A stretch of 64,000 nt of DNA from a bacterium. Lineage in GTDB: Bacteria; Patescibacteriota; Minisyncoccia; Phycocordibacterales; UBA2100. The position numbers were made by a program, and so were the translations under genes. The stretch spans positions 3,030 through 67,029 of the forward strand of contig JAUSHX010000013.1 in the NCBI GenBank assembly GCA_030648265.1, read 5' to 3'. Positions 40,414-64,000 of the stretch are shown here, in pieces. A model generated the notes under the pieces. That model saw only the letters and a list, made by a program, of their open reading frames with translations, was not told where the DNA came from and searched no databases. Positions within the stretch are counted from its first letter, which is position 1. Each line of letters begins with the position of its first letter.

Positions 40414-40459
40414 GGTTGGATTATATACGAGAATCCGAGAAAAGGTGTCGTATGTATAT

Positions 40460-40495
40460 GGTACAATCCATCAACACCTGTTGATGGATTGTACC
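40460..40495. promoter_or_regulatory. Perfect 36-bp palindrome GGTACAATCCATCAACACCTGTTGATGGATTGTACC abutting the ATG of the PaaX-like paralog 1
   Basis: Identical copy at 41101-41136 immediately after the same gene. Contains TACAAT. Confidence 0.8.
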
Positions 40496-41074
40496 ATGGC
40501 AAGAACATCCAATATGAAAACGACAGTGAATCAGAATCGGCGTGAGCGAACAGTGCAAATCCTCAAAATGGTTGCTGTCGGCGCACTTATCATTGGCATC
40601 GGTGCTGTACCATCTCCGCGGGCAGTTGGTAGGCTTCTTGCTGAACTAACACTTGGAGATAGCTCGAGAAATAGAAAATATGCGAGTCGGAAAATTAGAG
40701 AATTGAAAAAGCGCGGTTTCCTTGAGAAGCACGGCGTGCGGTATGCAGTCAGCGACAAAGGCCAACGAATACTCTCTCGCGAGCGCATTATGACCCTTGA
40801 GATACCAAGCTCCCGCAGGTGGAATGGGAGGTGGTATCTCATCATGTTTGACATTCCGCTCACGCAATCGTATGCACGGCAGGCACTCAATACGCTGTTA
40901 CTCGGCATGGGTCTGGTACAGTACCAGCAGTCGGTACTTATATATCCGTACCCCATCAAAGAAACGGTGCTGCACGTCTGCAGGTTTTACAAAGTCACTC
41001 GTTACGTATCTTTCGTTACGGCGGATAATGTCGACGGCGCGGACAAACTCAAAGGTCAGTTTGGCTTACCCTGA
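40496..41074 (+). CDS. Membrane-anchored wHTH + PaaX_C/Cas2-like domain protein, paralog 1 (likely start at MARTSN)
   Basis: N-terminal TM helix (MVAVGALIIGIGAV), a wHTH segment, then RWNGRWYLIMFDIPLTQSYARQALNTLLLGMGLVQYQQSVLIYPY. It is a paralog of 49699-50286 and 58780-59346. Confidence 0.55.
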   Translation: MARTSNMKTTVNQNRRERTVQILKMVAVGALIIGIGAVPSPRAVGRLLAELTLGDSSRNRKYASRKIRELKKRGFLEKHGVRYAVSDKGQRILSRERIMTLEIPSSRRWNGRWYLIMFDIPLTQSYARQALNTLLLGMGLVQYQQSVLIYPYPIKETVLHVCRFYKVTRYVSFVTADNVDGADKLKGQFGLP

Positions 41075-41100
41075 ACTTGCGCCGAGCTCACTCATGTAGC

Positions 41101-41136
41101 GGTACAATCCATCAACACCTGTTGATGGATTGTACC
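41101..41136. promoter_or_regulatory. Second copy of the paralog-1 palindrome
   Basis: Identical 36-mer. Confidence 0.8.
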
Positions 41137-41163
41137 GCCGTCTATGAGTCATGAGTATCCGAT

Positions 41164-47382: not shown

Positions 47383-47650
47383 GTTAGTTTTTCTTAACGA
47401 CCGAGCACTTTCTGACGATGCAGGTCTGAATAACTGTTTTAATGTTCCTTTTCGTGTTCATGTTTTTATAATCAATTAGCTTCTGAAAGTGCTCGGGGGT
47501 TTAGAAACAACTTACACCCAGCACCTTTAACGTACAGAATGCCGCGGGTTGGCGGAGTGTATTCCTTTGCGTTGTGCTTGATAAGTAAGTTCATATTGCT
47601 GGAAAAGGTGCTGGGTAAGTAAAATATAGTCGCTTCGCTCCTTATTTTAC
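47383..47650 (-). repeat. Family-1 element, copy 7, with a second hairpin (CCGAGCACTTTC...GAAAGTGCTCGG) nested in its arm
   Basis: Conserved arms. An extra 95-nt hairpin sits at about 47404-47500. Confidence 0.8.
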
Positions 47651-48046
47651 TTACCATATCTCAAACAACGCCTCGCCTCCGACATTTTCTTTGCGCGCCT
47701 CTTTGCCCGTAAGAATTCCCTTGGGAGTTGAGAGGACTAGGGTGCCGTGGCCGTACCGCACCGGCATAATTTCGCTCACGCTCCGGTACATCCTCCGTCC
47801 CGGTTTTGAGATGCGCTTTACGCCGTGGATGACGTGGATTCCGTCGCTGTCATATTTGAGAACTACGTCCAGTGTCTTGCGGACCTTTTTCCCTTTCTTG
47901 TCTATTGATGCGACAAATCCGGCATCTTTCAACTTTTCGGCGACCGCCAGCTTGAGTGAAGAAAACGGCACGGAGACCGATTCCTTTTTCACGGCCCCCG
48001 CATTCTTGAGGCGGATTATGAAATCACCAATCGTATCGTTTACCAT
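47651..48046 (-). CDS. rpsH: 30S ribosomal protein S8
   Basis: DTIGDFIIRLKNA. Confidence 0.9.
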   Translation of the reverse strand: MVNDTIGDFIIRLKNAGAVKKESVSVPFSSLKLAVAEKLKDAGFVASIDKKGKKVRKTLDVVLKYDSDGIHVIHGVKRISKPGRRMYRSVSEIMPVRYGHGTLVLSTPKGILTGKEARKENVGGEALFEIW

Positions 48047-48167
48047 GTTAGTTTTTCTTGCGAGCGTAAGCGAGTTAGAAACAACTTACACCCAGCACCT
48101 TTGTTTCATTGAGAAACGAAGGTGCTGGGTAAAGAAATAGTAATTCATTTTATTCATAACGATTTCT
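48047..48167 (-). repeat. Family-1 element, copy 8
   Basis: ACCCAGCACCTTTGTTTCATTGAGAAACGAAGGTGCTGGGT core. Confidence 0.9.
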
Positions 48168-48353
48168 TTACCAAGAGGACTTCTTAATTCCCGGAATGTT
48201 TCCTTCAAGCGCCTCCTCGCGGAAGCAAATACGGCAAAGATTGAAATCACGCAGGAAACCGCGCGGGCGCCCGCATTTGAAACAGCGCCGGATTACCCGG
48301 CTCTTGAACTTGGGCGGTCTTTGCGCCTTTACAACCATTGACCTCTTTGCCAT
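48168..48353 (-). CDS. rpsN: 30S ribosomal protein S14 type Z (61 aa, zinc-binding)
   Basis: [23 protein letters not shown]. Confidence 0.9.
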
Positions 48354-48395
48354 ATCAGATTTTGTTACGAGCGAAGCGAGTTAGAAAATCTTATA

Positions 48396-48688
48396 CCCAG
48401 CACCTTGTTTGTTTACGACAGACTGTTTTTAAGGCGATTCTTTACATAAGTGCGAGCGTTGCCATATTGCTTGAGTTGCAATTCGCGCCTTACCGCGTCT
48501 TGCTTCGCTTTATAGCTCTCGACATAGACATACTCCCATGGTCGACCGCGACTCGTTGCCGTGACTTGTCCGCTGTTGTGCGAAGCAAGACGCTCATCAA
48601 GATTCTCGGTTCTGCCAAAGTAAAGAACGCCTTTTTCAACACTGCGGATTACGTACACATGGTACATAAACAAACAAGGTGCTGGGTT
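48396..48688 (-). mobile_element. Candidate GIY-YIG mini-element: 21-bp perfect terminal inverted repeats enclosing a single nuclease ORF
   Basis: The TIRs are identical over 21 bp. The ORF start lies 10 nt inside one TIR and the stop overlaps the other. Copies 2, 8 and 17 look like internal-deletion derivatives (ACCCAGCACCTTTGTTTC...GAAACGAAGGTGCTGGGT). Confidence 0.6.
48413..48667 (-). CDS. GIY-YIG nuclease family protein (UPF0213/YhbQ-like), 84 aa
   Basis: MYHVYVIRS..GVLYFGRTENLDERLASHNSG...WEYVYVESY...A..RE.QLK. The ORF track starts 2 codons earlier at a TTG. Confidence 0.75.
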   Translation of the reverse strand: MYHVYVIRSVEKGVLYFGRTENLDERLASHNSGQVTATSRGRPWEYVYVESYKAKQDAVRRELQLKQYGNARTYVKNRLKNSLS

Positions 48689-48929
48689 ACGAAAATCATA
48701 GTCGCCTCGCTTCGCTACGGCTTCTTGATTTTCAGTAATACCCCGAAGGAGAAGCTAGAAACTCCTGCATCCTGCCTTGCGGCTGAAGATTACGGAAGCT
48801 TCTTCGCGTGACCCTGTTCTTCGTCCAACTTGTGGTTGAAAAACAAAGCCCCCAACGAGGCTCCGAAAATATACGCGAGATGCGGATGAAAGTCAAACTT
48901 CAAAAAGTCTGTTCTGAAACTAATTCGGA

Positions 48930-49529
48930 TCAAAACTTGTCTATATCGTCATTTGCTTCCCGACGCTCTTTTCTTCTTTTGAATATTTCTTCTTGAGAAA
49001 GTTTTCTACCGGGTACAAACCCCTCTCGCTTTTCCTGCTTTTGGCCTGTTTTAACTAGCATTTTCTTCCATGCGGCATCCAACGCGGGCCCAAGTTCATC
49101 AATAGGGAACCTGCGGAGAATCATCTCCCTTTCGATAGACCACGTATGCTCACCGTGCGTGGCGTAGTCAGACCCCCGTTCTCTGCGCACAGCGCTCTTT
49201 TGTTGATGAGAATCTTTTCCGAATGTGATTTTGCTGTTTATAGTACCTATGGTTTCCTCCTTTTCATTGGGATTGCGGAGGTAGTTAGTCATTCTTGATG
49301 AATAATCTACTATTTTTATCATTTCGTCATCAGAAATAGGGATTTTAAGTTCCTCTATTTCTTTTCTGAGGAAATCTTCAAAAATTGCATTGTCTACCAT
49401 TTCCTCTCCCGCGGTCTGTCCCGATTCTTTTGCTTTATCCGCCATGAGTCCTTCAAACTTCTCCGTACTCGCCTCGTGTTCTTTCTCTCGCTCGGTAGAA
49501 GCGTTTCTTTTGCCCATTTCTAGTGCCAT
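48930..49529 (-). CDS. Hypothetical hydrophilic protein (199 aa)
   Basis: ORF only; charged and low-complexity; no recognisable domain. Confidence 0.35.
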   Translation of the reverse strand: MALEMGKRNASTEREKEHEASTEKFEGLMADKAKESGQTAGEEMVDNAIFEDFLRKEIEELKIPISDDEMIKIVDYSSRMTNYLRNPNEKEETIGTINSKITFGKDSHQQKSAVRRERGSDYATHGEHTWSIEREMILRRFPIDELGPALDAAWKKMLVKTGQKQEKREGFVPGRKLSQEEIFKRRKERREANDDIDKF

Positions 49530-49657
49530 AATTTTATGCCTTATTTCCTAATTTCTTAATGCTACCCCCACCCTCCAGATACGCAAGCGGCAAAAGTGGA
49601 CATCAAAAGTCTCTCCGCCTGCTTTTTTTCTCTTCCCTTTCACCTTTCTGGGGATAA

Positions 49658-49703
49658 CCCATGTCCCTATCCAGTGGCTATAGCTATAATATAAGGACAT
49701 GGG
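49658..49703. promoter_or_regulatory. Hairpin CCCATGTCC-CTATCCAGTGGCTATAGCTATAATATAA-GGACATGGG overlapping the start of PaaX-like paralog 2
   Basis: Contains a perfect TATAAT 8 nt before the ATG. A near-identical copy lies at about 50311-50356 just after the gene. Confidence 0.75.
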
Positions 49704-50286
49704 AAGAATGGAGCTCGCGGCAAAAAAGCGCCGGAGGAAAGAGAACGTCCAACAGATAGTGCTGGGAGTAGTCGCGGTTGCGGGCATACTTGCAGTAACA
49801 ATGATTGCGCCCAATATTTTCCAAGCTATTCCGCGCCTGTTGGGCGATAAATATAAGTTTGGTTATCGAGCGCGTACCGCCGCCGGCCGCCTTGCGCAAA
49901 AGGGATACGTACGCTTCGTGGAACGAAACGGCAAGAAGTTTGTGGAGATAACAGAGAAAGGAAAACGCGCATACGCATTGGAAAAGGCAAGATTCACGGC
50001 ATACACAAACATCAACAAGCGCTGGGACAAACGCTGGCGAATTGTTGCTTTTGACATCCCAGAGACTCGGCGAGGAACACGCGAACGTGTGCGCAGACTG
50101 ATGCGCGAATTCGGGTTCCTTAAACTACAAGACAGCGTTTGGGTATTTCCCTACGACTGCGAGGAACTTATTACAATGATGAAGGCAGAACTGCGGATTG
50201 GTAAGGATATCCTGTACATAATCGCGGACACTATCGAGAACGACCAATGGGTGAGAAGACAGTTTAACCTTCTCAAAGAATCATAG
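49699..50286 (+). CDS. Membrane-anchored wHTH + PaaX_C/Cas2-like domain protein, paralog 2
   Basis: TM helix VLGVVAVAGILAV; wHTH AAGRLAQKGYVRFVERNGKKFVEITEKG; RWDKRWRIVAFDIPETRRGTRERVRRLMREFGFLKLQDSVWVFPYDCEEL. Confidence 0.6.
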   Translation: MGRMELAAKKRRRKENVQQIVLGVVAVAGILAVTMIAPNIFQAIPRLLGDKYKFGYRARTAAGRLAQKGYVRFVERNGKKFVEITEKGKRAYALEKARFTAYTNINKRWDKRWRIVAFDIPETRRGTRERVRRLMREFGFLKLQDSVWVFPYDCEELITMMKAELRIGKDILYIIADTIENDQWVRRQFNLLKES

Positions 50287-50310
50287 TGTCGTCCTATTTC
50301 TCTCGGTTTT

Positions 50311-50356
50311 CCATATCCCTATCCAGTGGCTATAGCTATAATATAAGGACATTGGG
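50311..50356. promoter_or_regulatory. Second copy of the paralog-2 hairpin
   Basis: CCATATCCCTATCCAGTGGCTATAGCTATAATATAAGGACATTGG. Confidence 0.75.
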
Positions 50357-50413
50357 CCATGCAAGATACACCTCCAAAGAGTGCGCGGGCGACGACAGTA
50401 TCTTTCTGTTTTT

Positions 50414-50959
50414 CTATTTCTTTGCTTCTGCTTCCTTCAGCGGCAATCCCAAGTACCTTAAGAATGCCTCCGCCTCTTTCTTATTTTTTGCCGTTGTGAC
50501 AACCGTCACCGCGAGTCCGAAGATATCCTTGCTGTCTTCATCGGATGTCTCGGGGAATACGATGTTCTCCTTGATGCCTATCGTGATGTTGCCCATTTCA
50601 TCTATGGTTTCAGGCCGAATGCCGCGGAAGTCTTTTGAGCGCGGGAGAACAATATGAATGAGTTTGTCCAAGAAGGTCTGCGCCCGCTTGTTGCGCAACG
50701 TGACTTGAAAGCCGACTTGGTCGCCCGCGCGGATTTTAAAGGTTGCAATGGATTTTTTGGCCATGCGCGCCGCCGGTGCCTGCCCCGTTATTCTCGTCAG
50801 GCGGTCTTTGATAACCTCGCGCTTTTTAGGGTCATGCTTTGCGCCGACTCCGGTTGAGACGACAATTTTAGAAACCTTCGGCGCCTGCATAACGCTCTTG
50901 TAGTGAAATTCCGTTTTGAGAGCTTCAAATGTTTTGTGCTGTGCTGTTTGTGTTTTCAT
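50414..50959 (-). CDS. rplE: 50S ribosomal protein L5
   Basis: PKVSKIVVSTGVG... Confidence 0.9.
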   Translation of the reverse strand: MKTQTAQHKTFEALKTEFHYKSVMQAPKVSKIVVSTGVGAKHDPKKREVIKDRLTRITGQAPAARMAKKSIATFKIRAGDQVGFQVTLRNKRAQTFLDKLIHIVLPRSKDFRGIRPETIDEMGNITIGIKENIVFPETSDEDSKDIFGLAVTVVTTAKNKKEAEAFLRYLGLPLKEAEAKK

Positions 50960-51399: not shown

Positions 51400-51573
51400 G
51401 TTAGAGATTATTAGCGAGTATTCCGAGCTTAGAAGCTCTTACACCCAGCACCTTTTACGCCAATGCTGTTGGTTGCAGGATAATACTGTCTAAGCGCGAT
51501 TTGGGCAAGAAAATTCATAGAGATTTAAAGGTGCTGGGTTTAGAAAAATATAGTCGCGTTGCTCCTTATTTTT
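51400..51573 (-). repeat. Family-1 element, copy 11 (78-nt loop identical to copy 12)
   Basis: The loop TTTTACGCCAATGCTGTTGGTTGCAGGATAATACTGTCTAAGCGCGATTTGGGCAAGAAAATTCATAGAGATTTAAA is repeated in 51946-52100. Confidence 0.85.
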
Positions 51574-51945: not shown

Positions 51946-52100
51946 GTTAGTTTTTGTTACGAGCGAAGCGAGTTAGAAAATCTTACACCCAGCACCTTTT
52001 ACGCCAATGCTGTTGGTTGCAGGATAATACTGTCTAAGCGCGATTTGGGCAAGAAAATTCATAGAGATTTAAAGGTGCTGGGTAATGTAAAACATAGTCG
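51946..52100 (-). repeat. Family-1 element, copy 12
   Basis: Same loop as copy 11. Confidence 0.85.
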
Positions 52101-52370: not shown

Positions 52371-52503
52371 ATGTATGTTCCAATCTACGAATATATTTCA
52401 ATCTACGAATATATTCCAATCTACAAATAACTACAAATGAGCGGCGTCGTATATTCGTAGCCATTCGTAGCATTCGCATCATTTGTAGATTGGGATTTCA
52501 TAT
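52371..52503 (-). repeat. Family-2 intercistronic repeat, copy 3
   Basis: CCAATCTACGAATATATTTCAATCTACGAATATATTCCAATCTACAAATAACTACAAATG...CATTTGTAGATTGGGAT. Confidence 0.8.
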
Positions 52504-52698: not shown

Positions 52699-52813
52699 AA
52701 TGTTCCAATCTACGAATATATTCCAATCTACAAATACCTGCAAATGAGCGACACCGTATATTCGTAGCCATTCGTAGTATTCGTATCATTTGCAGATTGG
52801 GACTTCATAGGGT
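52699..52813 (-). repeat. Family-2 intercistronic repeat, copy 4
   Basis: CCAATCTACGAATATATTCCAATCTACAAATACCTGCAAATG...CATTTGCAGATTGGGAC, with compensatory T/C changes in the stem. Confidence 0.8.
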
Positions 52814-53236: not shown

Positions 53237-53473
53237 GGTAGATTTTTACTGAGCGAAGCGATGATAATCGGTATTAATACTCATATTGGCTCCTCGGCTC
53301 GGAAAAGAAAGTGAGTACACTTCCTTTTCACTCGCCCTACGTCGCCAATAAAAATCACCACCCAGCACCTTTACACCCAAAGTGCTTTCCGATGTGCAAA
53401 GGATTTTTGTAACTCTATTTTGGATATTGTAGTTCATAGTGCTGTAAAAGGTGCTGGGTCTCGATAAAAATAG
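53237..53473 (-). repeat. Family-1 element, copy 13 (arm carries an extra insertion)
   Basis: ACCCAGCACCTTTACACCC...GCTGTAAAAGGTGCTGGGT, with about 90 nt of extra sequence in the arm nearest rplP. Confidence 0.8.
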
Positions 53474-54148: not shown

Positions 54149-54309
54149 GTTAGATTTTGTTATGAGCGAAGCGAGTTAGAAAATCTTACACCCAGCACCT
54201 TTTGCGATAATAATGCTTTGGGTCGCAGGATGATACTGTTTAGCGGCAATTTGAGCAATGAAGTTCACAGTGCTTAAAAGGTGCTGGGTCAAAATTGTGA
54301 TATTGGTAT
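54149..54309 (-). repeat. Family-1 element, copy 14 (loop related to copies 11 and 12)
   Basis: Loop TTTTGCGATAATAATGCTTTGGGTCGCAGGATGATACTGTTTAGCGGCAATTTGAGCAATGAAGTTCACAGTGCTTAAAA. Confidence 0.85.
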
Positions 54310-58319: not shown

Positions 58320-58500
58320 TGTGAACGCAGTGAACTAGGAAATCTTACACCCAGCACCATTTTTGCATCCCTACGATTCGTATTACTTCCCGATTTGGTT
58401 GAGACTGGCTCAACAAAGTCAGACACTTTTCACGCTAGAACGGATACAAAAATGGTGCTGGGTCGTGAGAATTATAGTCGCGCACTGCTCGCTCCTTAAT
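58320..58500 (-). repeat. Family-1 element, copy 18 (loop related to copy 16)
   Basis: ACCCAGCACCATTTTTGCATCC...TTGAGACTGGCTCAACAAAG...CAAAAATGGTGCTGGGT. Confidence 0.8.
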
Positions 58501-58707
58501 TCCCTACGAAAAAATCGCGCAACGGCAAATCGCTTGCGCGAGATACCATTGGTCCCTCCCCAATTACGGGGCGTGCCCCAGAATTGGGGAGGGACGTAGC
58601 GTTGGGGAAGTATACATACAGGCTCCCAAAATGCAAATATATGCTACCCGAGTTCAATGTAGAAGTGCACAGCCAAGTACACTCATGTTTTGTCGTGAGT
58701 AAACACT

Positions 58708-58741
58708 GTACCGATTCTGCGCGACCGCGTATAATCGGTAC
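58708..58741. promoter_or_regulatory. Palindrome GTACCGATTCTGCGCGACCGCGTATAATCGGTAC at the 3' side of PaaX-like paralog 3 (contains TATAAT and GATTC/AATC half-sites)
   Basis: Near-copy of 59347-59380. Lies about 400 bp upstream of rplC. Confidence 0.7.
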
Positions 58742-58779
58742 GGGACGTCTCTTCCAATACATCCTCTCAAATATAATAA

Positions 58780-59346
58780 TCACGATAGTCCGAATCGTTT
58801 TTTGAGCGGGATGTCACCCTCGATGGTGTCAACAATCATATAGAGAACATCTCTCCCGACGTGAAAATCGGCCTTAATCATAGTAATAAGGTCTTCGCAA
58901 TCATATGGATACACCCATACGCTGTCTTGAAGTCGCACGAAGCCGATATCTTGAAGTATGTGCCGTAATTTGTCTCGCAATCCCTTGCGATATTCTGGAA
59001 TATCAAAAACTAACACGCGCCACTTGCGGTCCCAATGCCGTGGCTTGTCTTCGGAATAATCGCGCGCCCGAAGTATACGGAGTGCGCACTCGCCTTTTGC
59101 GGTGAGCCGCAACTTTTTGCCTTCCCACGCGAGAAGCCCTGCTCGCGCAAGCCTGTCGCAAGAACGTTCCACGACATTTTTCTGCCGCGGCGACCGTATG
59201 ATTCCTAGTTTTGCCATAGCCCCGACAACGTTTGGAGCGACAATAAATACGCTCACGAGTCCGGCAAACTTGACCGAATCAAGGATAATCCTCTTGAGTT
59301 CATTTTTACGCGTTCGTCTTTCGCTTTCCGCTTCCTTAATCCCCAT
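58780..59346 (-). CDS. Membrane-anchored wHTH + PaaX_C/Cas2-like domain protein, paralog 3
   Basis: TM helix FAGLVSVFIVAPNVV; wHTH RLARAGLLAWEGKKLRLTAKGE; HWDRKWRVLVFDIPEYRKGLRDKLRHILQDIGFVRLQDSVWVYPYDCEDL. Confidence 0.6.
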   Translation of the reverse strand: MGIKEAESERRTRKNELKRIILDSVKFAGLVSVFIVAPNVVGAMAKLGIIRSPRQKNVVERSCDRLARAGLLAWEGKKLRLTAKGECALRILRARDYSEDKPRHWDRKWRVLVFDIPEYRKGLRDKLRHILQDIGFVRLQDSVWVYPYDCEDLITMIKADFHVGRDVLYMIVDTIEGDIPLKKRFGLS

Positions 59347-59383
59347 GTACTGATTCTACGCGACCGCGTAGAATCAGTACATG
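59344..59383. promoter_or_regulatory. Perfect palindrome CATGTACTGATTCTACGCGACCGCGTAGAATCAGTACATG overlapping the start codon of paralog 3
   Basis: TGATTC-N18-GAATCA half-sites resemble a PaaX operator. TAGAAT lies 6 nt upstream of the ATG on the coding strand. Confidence 0.75.
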
Positions 59384-59468
59384 TTTCGGAGTGTACAACC
59401 ATTGTGGACAGCCACGAGCAATGCTCGTTACTGCGTGTGTCGAGTTTCTCTTCTTATTTCTCTATCAC

Positions 59469-60416
59469 CTACAATTCCTCAAAAATCGGAATGATGTTGA
59501 CTGTCTGTATTTCCGAGAGCGTGGCCGGAGTAACGCCGGCGTAAGCCGCGCACGTGAGTGTGTACGTGGTCTGGCCCGTTATCGCGCTGGATGTTTGGCC
59601 GCTAGCTCCGGACGACAATCCTGTCCATGAATCGCCGTTCGTACCGGTAACCGTGCACGATGTCACATTGCTCACCTCCCAATGAACCTGCGTGGTGTCT
59701 CCGCTTGACAGAAGCGACGGCAAAAGCTGGAGATGGCCGGTAAATCCAACAGATGAAATAAAGGACGGCTGCGGGTATAGGCACGCGCTTGAACCGGAGG
59801 AGCAGAATGCCGGCGCAGTGCAGGTTGCATATGTAGTGGTCTGGCAGAAAGAATCCGTGTATAGAATGGTTTGCGTTCCGGAGCAGGAGTATACAGGCGT
59901 ACAGCTCGGACCGCTCGCCAGCGAGAAATCCAGCCAGCCGACAACATCGCTTCCCCACGCATATCCGGAAAGCGTCCCGTTAACGTCTTGAGTGACCCCG
60001 TATCCTGAACCGCTTAAACTAATCCAACCGTCCCACCCACCGCCATAAGAGAGTGCTCGGAGCCATCCCGTGAGCGCGTTGCCGTTAAATTTGGCCCTGC
60101 AAGGATTAGCGGGACAGCCCGAAAGCTCCGACTCATTCGCGGTAATCCAACCGATGTTGTCGCTCCATGCGTAGCCGGAAAGTTTCCCGTTGGTATCCAT
60201 GGTGAGCCCGTAGTTGGAGCCGCTTAATGAGACCCATCCGATGTTGTCGCTCCATGCGTAACCCGAAAGATTGGACGTGTCGGCGAATGCAAAGTTCTTA
60301 TTCTTCAAAGAGCCGGCAGAGTTCAGAAAGAATAGCAAAACTGCCAGTCCGGCAAGCAATATAATAATCTGCTTAAAACGAAGTCTTTCTACTATTCCCT
60401 TGCCAGTGAATGCCAT
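59469..60416 (-). CDS. Secreted repeat protein (GYAWSDNIGW[IV]SL.G..YG.T.D.NG.LSGYAW repeats) with Cys-rich C-terminal region
   Basis: Signal/anchor helix, three or more copies of the 35-aa repeat, and a Ser/Thr-rich tail. Confidence 0.5.
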   Translation of the reverse strand: MAFTGKGIVERLRFKQIIILLAGLAVLLFFLNSAGSLKNKNFAFADTSNLSGYAWSDNIGWVSLSGSNYGLTMDTNGKLSGYAWSDNIGWITANESELSGCPANPCRAKFNGNALTGWLRALSYGGGWDGWISLSGSGYGVTQDVNGTLSGYAWGSDVVGWLDFSLASGPSCTPVYSCSGTQTILYTDSFCQTTTYATCTAPAFCSSGSSACLYPQPSFISSVGFTGHLQLLPSLLSSGDTTQVHWEVSNVTSCTVTGTNGDSWTGLSSGASGQTSSAITGQTTYTLTCAAYAGVTPATLSEIQTVNIIPIFEEL

Positions 60417-60846: not shown

Positions 60847-61488
<642 letters not shown>

Positions 61489-63366: not shown

Positions 63367-64000
63367 TTATGGTTCTAGGTGTCCGATGGGCGTGTTGGCA
63401 CAGGATGACTGCGTCGGATTATACGTACTACCATCACAATAGTAGTAATATGTCGTCCCGCTTTCTGGGTCCCACCCGTAAACATTTACAATACAAGTCG
63501 CTGAACTGGTCAGAATCCCTGACACTGTAAGTTCCAATCCACTCTTAAAACAACCCCAAGATTCTTGATACACTTGAGAACCATAGACAGTCGGGCCGGC
63601 GGGGCCTTGCGGACCCGTTGGACCAGTGAGTCCCGTTGCGCCAGTTGCTCCTGTCCCACCAGTTGCTCCGGTTGCTCCAGTTAAGCCGGTTGCACCTGCT
63701 GGGCCTGCCGGTCCCGTTGCACCTGTTGCTCCGGTAGTTCCTGTTGCACCCGTTGCTCCAGCCGGACCTGTTGGTCCTGGAGGCCAACTCGTAACGCAGG
63801 ACGCGCCGATGCAGAATTTCGGAGAAGTAATGGCGCTAGTGTTCACTATTGTTCCCCCCGATAAGTATATGGACATGGAGTCAAAGATAGTGTTGTTGGC
63901 CGAGAAATCTCCATGTTTGATTTGAGTAGTAATGCCGGTATTTATGGGTGTATCGGTGTTCCCGTCTGGCGGAGCGGCTGTTGGCCCTGTCCATGCATAG
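63367..64000 (-). CDS. Second collagen-like triple-helix repeat protein (paralog of 60847-61488); the N-terminus runs off the window end
   Basis: The reverse-strand frame beyond the annotated Met continues ...[22 protein letters not shown]..., matching the conserved N-terminal region of the paralog. GATGATG tracts follow. Confidence 0.55.

Follow-up and report, generated by a model that had tools for sequence, protein, structure and literature searches.

The S10-spc-alpha cluster of ribosomal-protein genes is the standard case of conserved bacterial gene order, and it serves as a backbone of phylogenomics and binning in the Candidate Phyla Radiation (CPR). How do accessory genes come to lie inside it? 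The question is raised by a 64-kb stretch (hereafter the window) of a metagenome-assembled genome from an ultra-small bacterium whose closest relatives by RplE are Candidatus Kaiserbacteria at 86-89% identity. Its ribosomal-protein genes run on the minus strand in the order rplC-rplD-rplW-rplB-rpsS-rplV-rpsC-rplP-rpmC-rpsQ-rplN-rplX-rplE, and, after a gap, rpsN-rpsH-rplF-rplR-rpsE-rplO-secY. The gap from the rplE stop (50414) to the rpsN start (48353) spans 2,060 bp (48354-50413) and holds three open reading frames (ORFs): a gene of the PaaX type, a hydrophilic ORFan of 199 amino acids (aa) and a GIY-YIG nuclease gene. An earlier note on this DNA took the interval for a single insertion that splits a continuous operon. 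Its coordinates and its count of three genes hold, and Pfam confirms both flanking genes. We consider it likely, however, that the interval is the window's own fill of a lineage-wide variable slot at a native boundary between two transcription units, and that it is made up of three independent modules.

A variable slot between rplE and rpsN

Related genome loci (numbered L001, L002 and so on) were retrieved via RplE, and in a first set of 80 the genes rplX, rplE, rpsN, rpsH and rplF were each located. Length statistics refer to a clade of 50 Kaiserbacteria loci with RplE identity of at least 65.5%. In this clade the distance between rplE and rpsN varies from 182 to 4,298 nt with a median of 1,114, and it exceeds 400 nt in 44 of the 50 loci. 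The neighbouring junctions reach maxima of 184 nt (rplX-rplE), 181 nt (rpsN-rpsH) and 271 nt (rpsH-rplF). In L011 and L026, rpsN does not occur within 6 kb downstream of rplE, so that either the island is longer than 6 kb or the downstream unit has been relocated.

The ORFs found in the gap are mostly unrelated to each other, 94 of 147 being singletons. Recurrent ones encode an S-adenosylmethionine (SAM)-dependent methyltransferase (13 loci) and a small antitoxin-like protein (10 loci). YafQ/ParE, MazF and HepT toxins, Fic, an EamA transporter, an inositol monophosphatase and the PaaX-like gene also recur. The fills of the five closest genomes are all unlike: the gap of L002 has 280 bp and no gene, L005 carries a PaaX-like gene, and L001 (1.5 kb), L003 (1.9 kb) and L004 (3.4 kb) have other genes. 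The interval was thus rightly described as accessory, since sister genomes with 86-89% identical RplE are filled differently. The rplE-rpsN interval is a hotspot common to the lineage and not a peculiarity of one genome.

The modules of the window also occur apart from one another, which speaks against their arrival as one 2-kb piece. In L081 the PaaX cassette is followed directly by the leader of rpsN, with no 199-aa ORFan between them; the contig stops before rpsN. The order leader, GIY-YIG element, rpsN is present in L003, L004 and L170, which lack the PaaX-like gene and the ORFan of the window.

The rpsN promoter and its leader RNA

The best promoter match in the region is TTGACT-17 nt-TATATT on the minus strand (48868-48896), which agrees with the consensus at 10 of 12 positions. 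The minimal gap of L002 contains this same promoter followed by a conserved sequence, which is found in the window at 48896-48738. A motif search upstream of rpsN detected the promoter in 49 of 52 loci, and a profile anchored on matches to the leader RNA placed both hexamers at a fixed offset in all 52, with TTGACT in every one. The first 11 nt of the spacer are variable, the -10 box reads TAnnnT, and the discriminator is variable. This is the pattern expected for a working promoter.

The -35 box lies 1 to 4,060 nt beyond the rplE stop, and in L024, L052, L022 and L030 it begins 1-9 nt after it. From the promoter to the rpsN ATG, in contrast, the distance stays within 162-283 nt, except in loci with an inserted GIY-YIG element. 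By this pattern of conservation, the variable genes fall ahead of the rpsN promoter and separate two transcription units. Because the varying genes lie between the rplE stop and a conserved promoter, the break is older than the genome of the window. The proposal that a previously continuous operon was split is therefore not borne out: the boundary formed by promoter and leader is clade-wide, and in the minimal genomes it begins almost at the rplE stop. The internal promoters that had been predicted are indicated by the conserved rpsN hexamers and by a TATAAT in front of the PaaX-like gene.

Downstream of the promoter lies a putative structured leader RNA of about 127 nt (48738-48864, minus strand). 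Single-sequence folds of divergent relatives give a three-way junction of P1, P2 and P3/P4 with energies of -51 to -59 kcal/mol. P1 pairs GGGG with CUCC. P2 pairs GCUUUGUUUUU with AAGAACAAGGUC and carries a variable apical hairpin, P3 pairs GAAGCUUC with GGAGCUUC, and P4 is a hairpin with a GNRA cap. With a plain MAFFT alignment RNAalifold recovered 11 pairs only; a structure set by hand and a covariance model (R1) built from ten sequences took its place. R1 has one match in the window and one per locus in 50 loci, all just upstream of rpsN, and zero matches elsewhere in 947 kb; it also matches the later loci L081, L114, L170 and L171. In the resulting alignment 93.9% of the cells are paired, and 24 of the 31 pairs show compensatory changes. 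Double-change cells number 183, compared with 47.7 +/- 7.8 in shuffled controls and at most 36 with slid partners. At gathering thresholds no Rfam family matches anywhere in the window, and the region 48000-50600 has chance-level matches only (E>=0.7). As far as sampled, the leader appears restricted to the Kaiserbacteria clade with a short uS14.

The bases at the 5' end of the leader can instead pair as GCCUC-GUAG-GGGGC followed by a U-run (48844-48865, minus strand), a terminator-like hairpin that excludes P1 and P2. A plain hairpin or terminator reading of this site was set aside, as folds and covariation assign the same bases to P1 and P2 of the larger leader; it is kept as an alternative conformer. 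This hairpin could stop transcripts arriving from upstream or act as an attenuator. As ligand of the leader, a ribosomal protein encoded in the unit, such as S8 or S14, is a natural guess. The leaders of L002 (2960-3050) and L042 have an extra insert of about 85 nt between the 5' hairpin and the RNA core. The stretch from leader to rpsN ATG often holds other small palindromic inserts, for example ACCCTTCGACTTCGCTCAGGGTAAAATTTCTTCAAAATTTT in L008, L029, L033 and L049.

In short-uS14 Kaiserbacteria, then, the rpsN unit would be driven by its own sigma-70-type promoter and would start with the structured leader. Gain or loss of DNA between the rplE stop and this promoter would be harmless to both units. 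Since neither unit would be broken, accessory genes could accumulate in the slot.

The PaaX-like gene and its palindromes

The first module is the PaaX-like gene (49699-50286), which encodes 195 aa on the plus strand. It lies antisense to the operon, converges with rplE and cannot belong to the operon transcript, contrary to what had been supposed. The protein matches PF20803 (PaaX_M, Cas2-like) with 68.7 bits against a cut-off of 24 bits (E=4.7e-19). The PaaX_C label given by the earlier note has to be corrected accordingly: the matched domain is the middle, Cas2-like one, Pfam finds no PaaX_C, and the chain ends at residue 195. The score for the PaaX equivalog TIGR02277 is 43.3 bits against a cut-off of 264.55 bits. 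Pfam also gives a weak Cas2 match. The protein clears the cut-off of the NCBIfam cas2 model by a narrow margin, with 25.6 versus 24.5 bits across only 45 residues, and this accounts for the label 'CRISPR-associated endonuclease Cas2' in public annotation. An exact look-up of the protein returned no record.

The AlphaFold2 (AF2) model has a mean predicted local distance difference test score (pLDDT) of 70.7. The score is about 90 in the Cas2-like domain and below 50 in the N-terminal residues 3-49. Helices 40-47 and 53-67 with a beta-wing at 71-84 (pLDDT 54-74) form a predicted winged helix-turn-helix. The top Foldseek match is E. coli PaaX (8a39, E=3.8e-5, 191 columns), followed by Rv0674, 3l09 and Cas2 structures; the last align to residues of about 113-176 with a target-normalised TM-score of about 0.6. 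The N-terminal hydrophobic helix may anchor the protein in the membrane or correspond to helix 1 of a PaaX N-domain, and we make no claim for this low-confidence part of the model. The window has no CRISPR-like array (no 14-mer at least three times at a spacing of 45-100 nt). The neighbouring genes are ribosomal and include no cas1, although the search for cas1 did not extend over the whole window. No paa genes adjoin the gene, whose neighbours are rplE and the ORFan, and other family members lie in glycosyltransferase or gyrA contexts.

The hairpins said to bracket the gene are real: two imperfect palindromes of 45 nt, 96% identical, flank it at 49659-49703 and 50311-50355. The 3' copy lies where rplE and the PaaX-like gene converge, between their stop codons. 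The 5' copy terminates in the start codon (49699-49701) and contains the perfect TATAAT (49685-49690) already reported, 8 nt before the ATG. A -10 box so close to the ATG implies a leaderless mRNA, and the 5' palindrome is likely to combine the operator and the promoter of that mRNA. A flanking pair is present in 10 of 10 curated cassettes, and in 8 of them the palindrome ends precisely at the ATG. L005 and L081 have an equivalent palindrome. Within the window, the palindrome occurs at its two flanking positions only.

Two further paralogues are present in the window, at 58780-59346 (39% identity) and at about 40496-41074 (26% identity, tblastn). Their cassettes (58707-59383 and 40458-41138) have their own, differing palindrome pairs, CATGTACTGATTCTACGCG.. 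and ATGGTACAATCCATCAACA.. respectively. The ATGGTACAATCCATCAACA.. copies are 100% identical, and there are three cassettes within 20 kb in all. Cassettes in L039, L044, L049, L079, L081, L082 and L084 also have palindrome pairs of their own. A metagenome scan found at least 597 relatives, of which 76 loci were evaluable. The flank-to-flank repeat score was at least 12 in 67 of these 76 loci and in none of the 76 in each of two internal controls, and the palindromes are spaced 605-690 nt apart. The two palindromes of one cassette are more alike than orthologous counterparts, as the window and L081 show. The details that a pair shares thus differ between orthologues, which indicates that the two palindromes co-evolve.

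The family is large, with at least 477 representatives (50% identity clusters, E<=1e-30). Among the best 150 members, nearly all have 160-260 aa and most about 190. In 13 loci, with RplE identities from 48 to 89%, a PaaX-like gene occupies the rplE-rpsN gap, and it is convergent with rplE in all but one. These 13 include 6 of 61 informative metagenomic loci. To judge from this distribution, the PaaX-like module is an old or recurrent resident of the gap. Whether relatives all carry the same genes here can thus be answered in two parts: they do not for the interval as a whole, and the PaaX-like gene does recur. A cassette with 63% identity lies antisense within a co-directional cluster of glycosyltransferase and sugar-nucleotide genes in L082 (3961-4640), a second case in which an operon-like array is interrupted.

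These observations are consistent with a self-contained cassette, on the strand opposite to the operon, whose dimeric protein would bind both palindromes. Overlap of the 5' palindrome with the -10 box and leaderless start would allow the PaaX-like gene to repress itself. The 3' palindrome, where rplE transcription arrives, might act as a roadblock or insulator.

The 199-aa ORFan and a 55-nt element

The second module is the ORFan (48930-49529, minus strand), which belongs to no Pfam or NCBIfam family; a sub-threshold match to SurA_N_2 was ignored. Among 5.8 billion proteins it finds itself (an NCBI protein from a metagenome-assembled genome) and one homologue with 86% identity. Its GC content at third codon positions (GC3) is 0.427 (z=-1.8).

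Upstream of the ORFan is a promoter-like element of about 55 nt (49546-49612, minus strand) with a possible TTGCGT-16-TAGCAT. The element, which includes a G-run, is near-invariant in L001 (6802-6847), L003 (7181-7221) and L004 (7996-8047 and 8867-8935), where the two copies form a tandem duplication. It precedes four ORFs of these sister genomes in the same position. The four are mostly unrelated to each other, and none is similar to the ORFan (E>0.3). This looks like the replacement of ORFs behind a fixed promoter, and the ORFan would be the lineage-specific gene that currently occupies this place.

The GIY-YIG element and family-1 repeats

The third module lies on the other side of the rpsN promoter and leader. 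The GIY-YIG cassette listed by the earlier note is indeed present; it sits inside the loop of a palindromic element of the repeat family called family 1, and promoter and leader separate it from the other two genes. The element (48354-48734, approximate bounds, minus strand) is situated between the leader and the rpsN ATG. Its ORF (48413-48673) probably starts at the ATG at 48667, which gives 84 aa (48413-48667), because 36 homologues are nearly all 84-86 aa long. The protein matches PF01541 over residues 3-76 (E=3.3e-16), and the motifs VYVI...LYFGRT and later acidic residues can be recognized by eye. The protein consists of the catalytic domain only, with no separate DNA-binding domain.

Compared with L001 and L002, the element is a clean insertion of about 380 bp that separates the leader's 3' end from the rpsN ATG, and it is common to L003 and L004. 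It consists of a left outer hairpin, perfect 21-nt inner arms and a right outer hairpin that reaches the host ATG. The upstream inner arm (48667-48687, TAAACAAACAAGGTGCTGGGT on the plus strand) overlaps the start codon of the GIY-YIG gene, and the downstream one (48395-48415) overlaps its stop codon. No clear target-site duplication is seen at the rpsN junction. In other genomes, homologues with 58-92% identity lie upstream of fusA, rpsN, rplJ and hsp20, always on the strand of the host gene and with the same arms and outer flanks. From the GIY-YIG stop codon to the starts of fusA, rplJ and hsp20 the distance is 46-62 nt. A 39% identical homologue with variant arms is found upstream of rplX in L007.

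The family-1 arm ACCCAGCACCTT has 28 matches in the window, with 0.19 expected. The arm and the outer flanks are common to the GIY-YIG unit and about 14 ORF-less copies of the window. The unit is probably the autonomous parent of the ORF-less repeats, since it sits upstream of several different host genes, and the simplest reading of both is a mobile element with derivatives resembling miniature inverted-repeat transposable elements (MITEs). L002 has no family-1 copies, and its cluster spacers are 5-33 nt long. An exact pattern, ACCCAGCACC-N4-34-GGTGCTGGGT, was unmatched in the loci, whereas a plain arm search did give matches. A short-loop family-1-like copy with arms ATCCAGCACC is present in L012 (7700-7790).

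The window also has family-1 copies with loops of about 100 nt (47516-47616, 51443-51539, 51987-52083, 53360-53459 and 54190-54289). They carry a small ORF on the operon strand that opens with ATGAA(C/T) and continues as far as the arm (an example is MNFLAQIALRQYYPAT...KGAG), and three of them are 78-100% identical in the loop. The statement that every other spacer of the operon is a single family-1 element is mostly right. The exceptions are the rpsQ-rpmC-rplP spacers and the short rplW-rplD-rplC and rpsE-rplO spacers. The rpsQ-rpmC and rpmC-rplP spacers (52374-52429 and 52699-52736) have no family-1 element; they hold three and two copies of an 18-nt tandem repeat, TATGTTCCAATCTACGAATA, and also a 110-nt direct repeat.

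The surrounding genes

The gene rplE (50414-50959, minus strand; Pfam Ribosomal_L5 and L5_C) encodes uL5 and is the last gene of the upstream ribosomal-protein transcription unit. The gene rpsN (48168-48353, minus strand; Pfam Ribosomal_S14) encodes a short, zinc-ribbon-type uS14 of 61 aa and heads the unit that ends with secY. The gene for L30 is absent from the cluster. Absence of L30 is general among CPR bacteria. On the upstream side of rplC (58320-59470) there is no rpsJ (S10) at the usual head position of the cluster; this region holds instead a family-1 element, a 95-aa ORF and the PaaX-like paralogue of 58780-59346, on the operon strand. Two predicted proteins with long collagen-like G-x-T repeats are encoded at 60847-61488 and 63367-63876, beside other secreted-looking proteins.

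Weighing the explanations

The view that one recent, horizontally acquired block of about 2 kb of foreign DNA lies inside a continuous essential operon and is read through agrees with the differences among the closest relatives and with the somewhat higher AT content of the ORFan. It is nevertheless very improbable, given that the three modules are distributed separately, that a conserved promoter and leader stand between the second and third, and that one gene is antisense. A check of composition and codon usage does not support a foreign origin for two of the three genes: the PaaX-like and GIY-YIG genes are native in composition, with absolute z<1 for GC, GC3 and codon use relative to the window. 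The interval contains no recombinase, integrase or transposase domain according to Pfam, and no att-type or tRNA/tmRNA boundary was found for the slot (Rfam gives no tRNA in the whole window). A phage or plasmid origin was dropped because neither the interval nor the PaaX-like protein has relatives in IMG/VR, the INPHARED phages or the PLSDB plasmids. A metagenome-assembled genome invites the further suspicion of an assembly or binning artefact, that is, a chimeric contig joining unrelated DNA between rplE and rpsN. Such an artefact is effectively excluded, since each junction recurs in independent assemblies: rplE/PaaX-like/leader in L081, leader/GIY-YIG/rpsN in L003, L004 and L170, and rplE/PaaX-like in L005.

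The most serious competitor, which we still hold to be unlikely, is that the ancestor of the clade had a PaaX-like gene, and perhaps others, after rplE and that these old residents were mostly lost or replaced. It would account for the recurrence of a convergent PaaX-like gene over a wide range of RplE identity, as chance placement in one intergenic site would be far rarer. However, rplE-adjacent members fall into at least four clades of a neighbour-joining tree, interleaved with members from glycosyltransferase clusters and from positions after gyrA. Four of the five closest genomes lack the PaaX-like gene, and the other island genes are unshared. The cassette might also be a working part of ribosomal-protein gene control, its 3' palindrome ending or insulating the rplE unit or its protein regulating the neighbours. 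Recurrence at the 3' end of rplE, a second paralogue immediately ahead of rplC, where the same cluster begins, and the absence of an ordinary terminator after rplE are all compatible with such a role. We regard it as improbable, because about 90% of the informative family members are located elsewhere, most Kaiserbacteria have no PaaX-like gene at rplE-rpsN, the palindrome is confined to its two flanking positions in the 64 kb, and the third paralogue lies between purD and a LOG-family gene.

A lineage-wide slot filled by three independent modules thus remains the likely explanation, and several points weigh against it. No convincing intrinsic terminator follows rplE, so that transcription may read through across the antisense gene. 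The promoters are predicted from consensus and conservation. The 5' hairpin of the leader would also form in transcripts from the rpsN promoter unless the start site lies inside the hairpin. The leader alignment was fitted to its model, and the counts of paired and compensatory positions lean toward the structure, although the margin is still large. Outside rpsN, the GIY-YIG element has no defined target-site duplication or pair of empty and filled sites, and a nuclease of 84 aa that lacks a DNA-binding domain makes a weak candidate for a complete transposase. To our knowledge, GIY-YIG is not an established class of bacterial transposase. Finally, recurrence in 13 loci may mean that the PaaX module is functionally tied to the operon and is not a passive passenger.

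Relation to known systems

The gene order of the cluster is that of the spc operon of E. coli and B. subtilis (rplN-rplX-rplE-rpsN-rpsH-...-secY). In contrast to that operon, the cluster of the window is cut between rplE and rpsN, where an rpsN promoter, a leader of about 127 nt with no Rfam match and, in Kaiserbacteria, kilobases of variable genes are found. The spc cluster is autoregulated through an mRNA structure to which one of its own proteins binds, with S8 providing the feedback (Cerretti et al. 1983, cited in PMC9297842). Like the Rfam ribosomal leaders (L10, L20, S15, S4 and others), the rpsN leader is a conserved, covarying structure of a 5' untranslated region; no Rfam family reaches E<0.7 with it, and as sampled it is limited to short-uS14 Kaiserbacteria.

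The slot resembles integration hotspots and islands in that one core-gene junction concentrates variable genes, toxin-antitoxin modules and ORFans. It differs from them by lacking an integrase, a tRNA/tmRNA, an att-type boundary and a clear compositional deviation, and by its position inside the most conserved gene cluster of bacteria. It is not described in an island survey of Patescibacteria (PMC12455944). Our literature search found no description of the slot, of the palindrome-bracketed cassette or of the GIY-YIG element.

PaaX binds a palindromic operator. E. coli PaaX (PDB 8a39), the repressor of phenylacetate catabolism, has a winged helix and a Cas2-like domain, as does the model of the PaaX-like protein. 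The protein of the window, in contrast, has about 190 aa, has no C-terminal ligand domain, scores below the equivalog cut-off and has no paa genes nearby. A copy of its own palindrome stands on either side of the gene, and there are several diverged paralogues per genome. With Cas2, the protein shares the ferredoxin-like fold of its central domain and not a CRISPR array or an adjacent cas1.

The GIY-YIG unit resembles REP/RAYT, IS200/IS605, ERIC, BIME and Correia elements in its single ORF, hairpin ends and ORF-less palindromic derivatives. The start codon buried in a stem and the presence of derivatives in transcribed intergenic spacers are further REP/RAYT-type features. The unit differs from these elements because its ORF encodes a GIY-YIG nuclease and not an HUH/Y1 transposase, and because its copies end exactly at the downstream start codon and are seen before translation or stress genes. 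A catalytic domain and an intergenic insertion site are shared with GIY-YIG homing endonucleases (T4 Seg and I-TevI). Unlike these, the unit has a catalytic domain of about 84 aa alone, long palindromic arms, many unrelated sites and ORF-less derivatives. The GIY-YIG element or the palindrome-bracketed cassettes have a fair chance of representing a new kind of system.

Significance

The slot corrects the assumption that the S10-spc-alpha cluster is a single unit in this lineage. It provides a natural landing site for the study of gene gain and loss in genomes of less than 1 Mb, and binning and island-prediction tools may go wrong there. The interval also yields three testable objects that we did not find described. 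One is the rpsN leader RNA with its strong covariation. Another is a very common CPR protein family, misannotated as Cas2, whose genes are bracketed by palindromes that appear to be cognate. The remaining one is the GIY-YIG element, the apparent parent of an intercistronic repeat family.

A broader view, which we put forward tentatively and hold to be somewhat more doubtful than probable, is that two undescribed kinds of CPR element are present here: a GIY-YIG palindromic transposable or homing element, and palindrome-PaaX/Cas2-palindrome units with a selfish or chromosome-organising role. If this is true, a structure-specific nuclease of 84 aa would mobilise itself along with a large family of hairpin repeats that have no ORF. 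Landing just 5' of start codons, these repeats would provide highly expressed genes with their translation-initiation region. The PaaX/Cas2 cassettes, rather than being ordinary regulators, would be orthogonal pairs of protein and site. On this view, and with the rpsN leader taken into account, such elements would have colonised and partly rewired the ribosomal-protein cluster of CPR bacteria.

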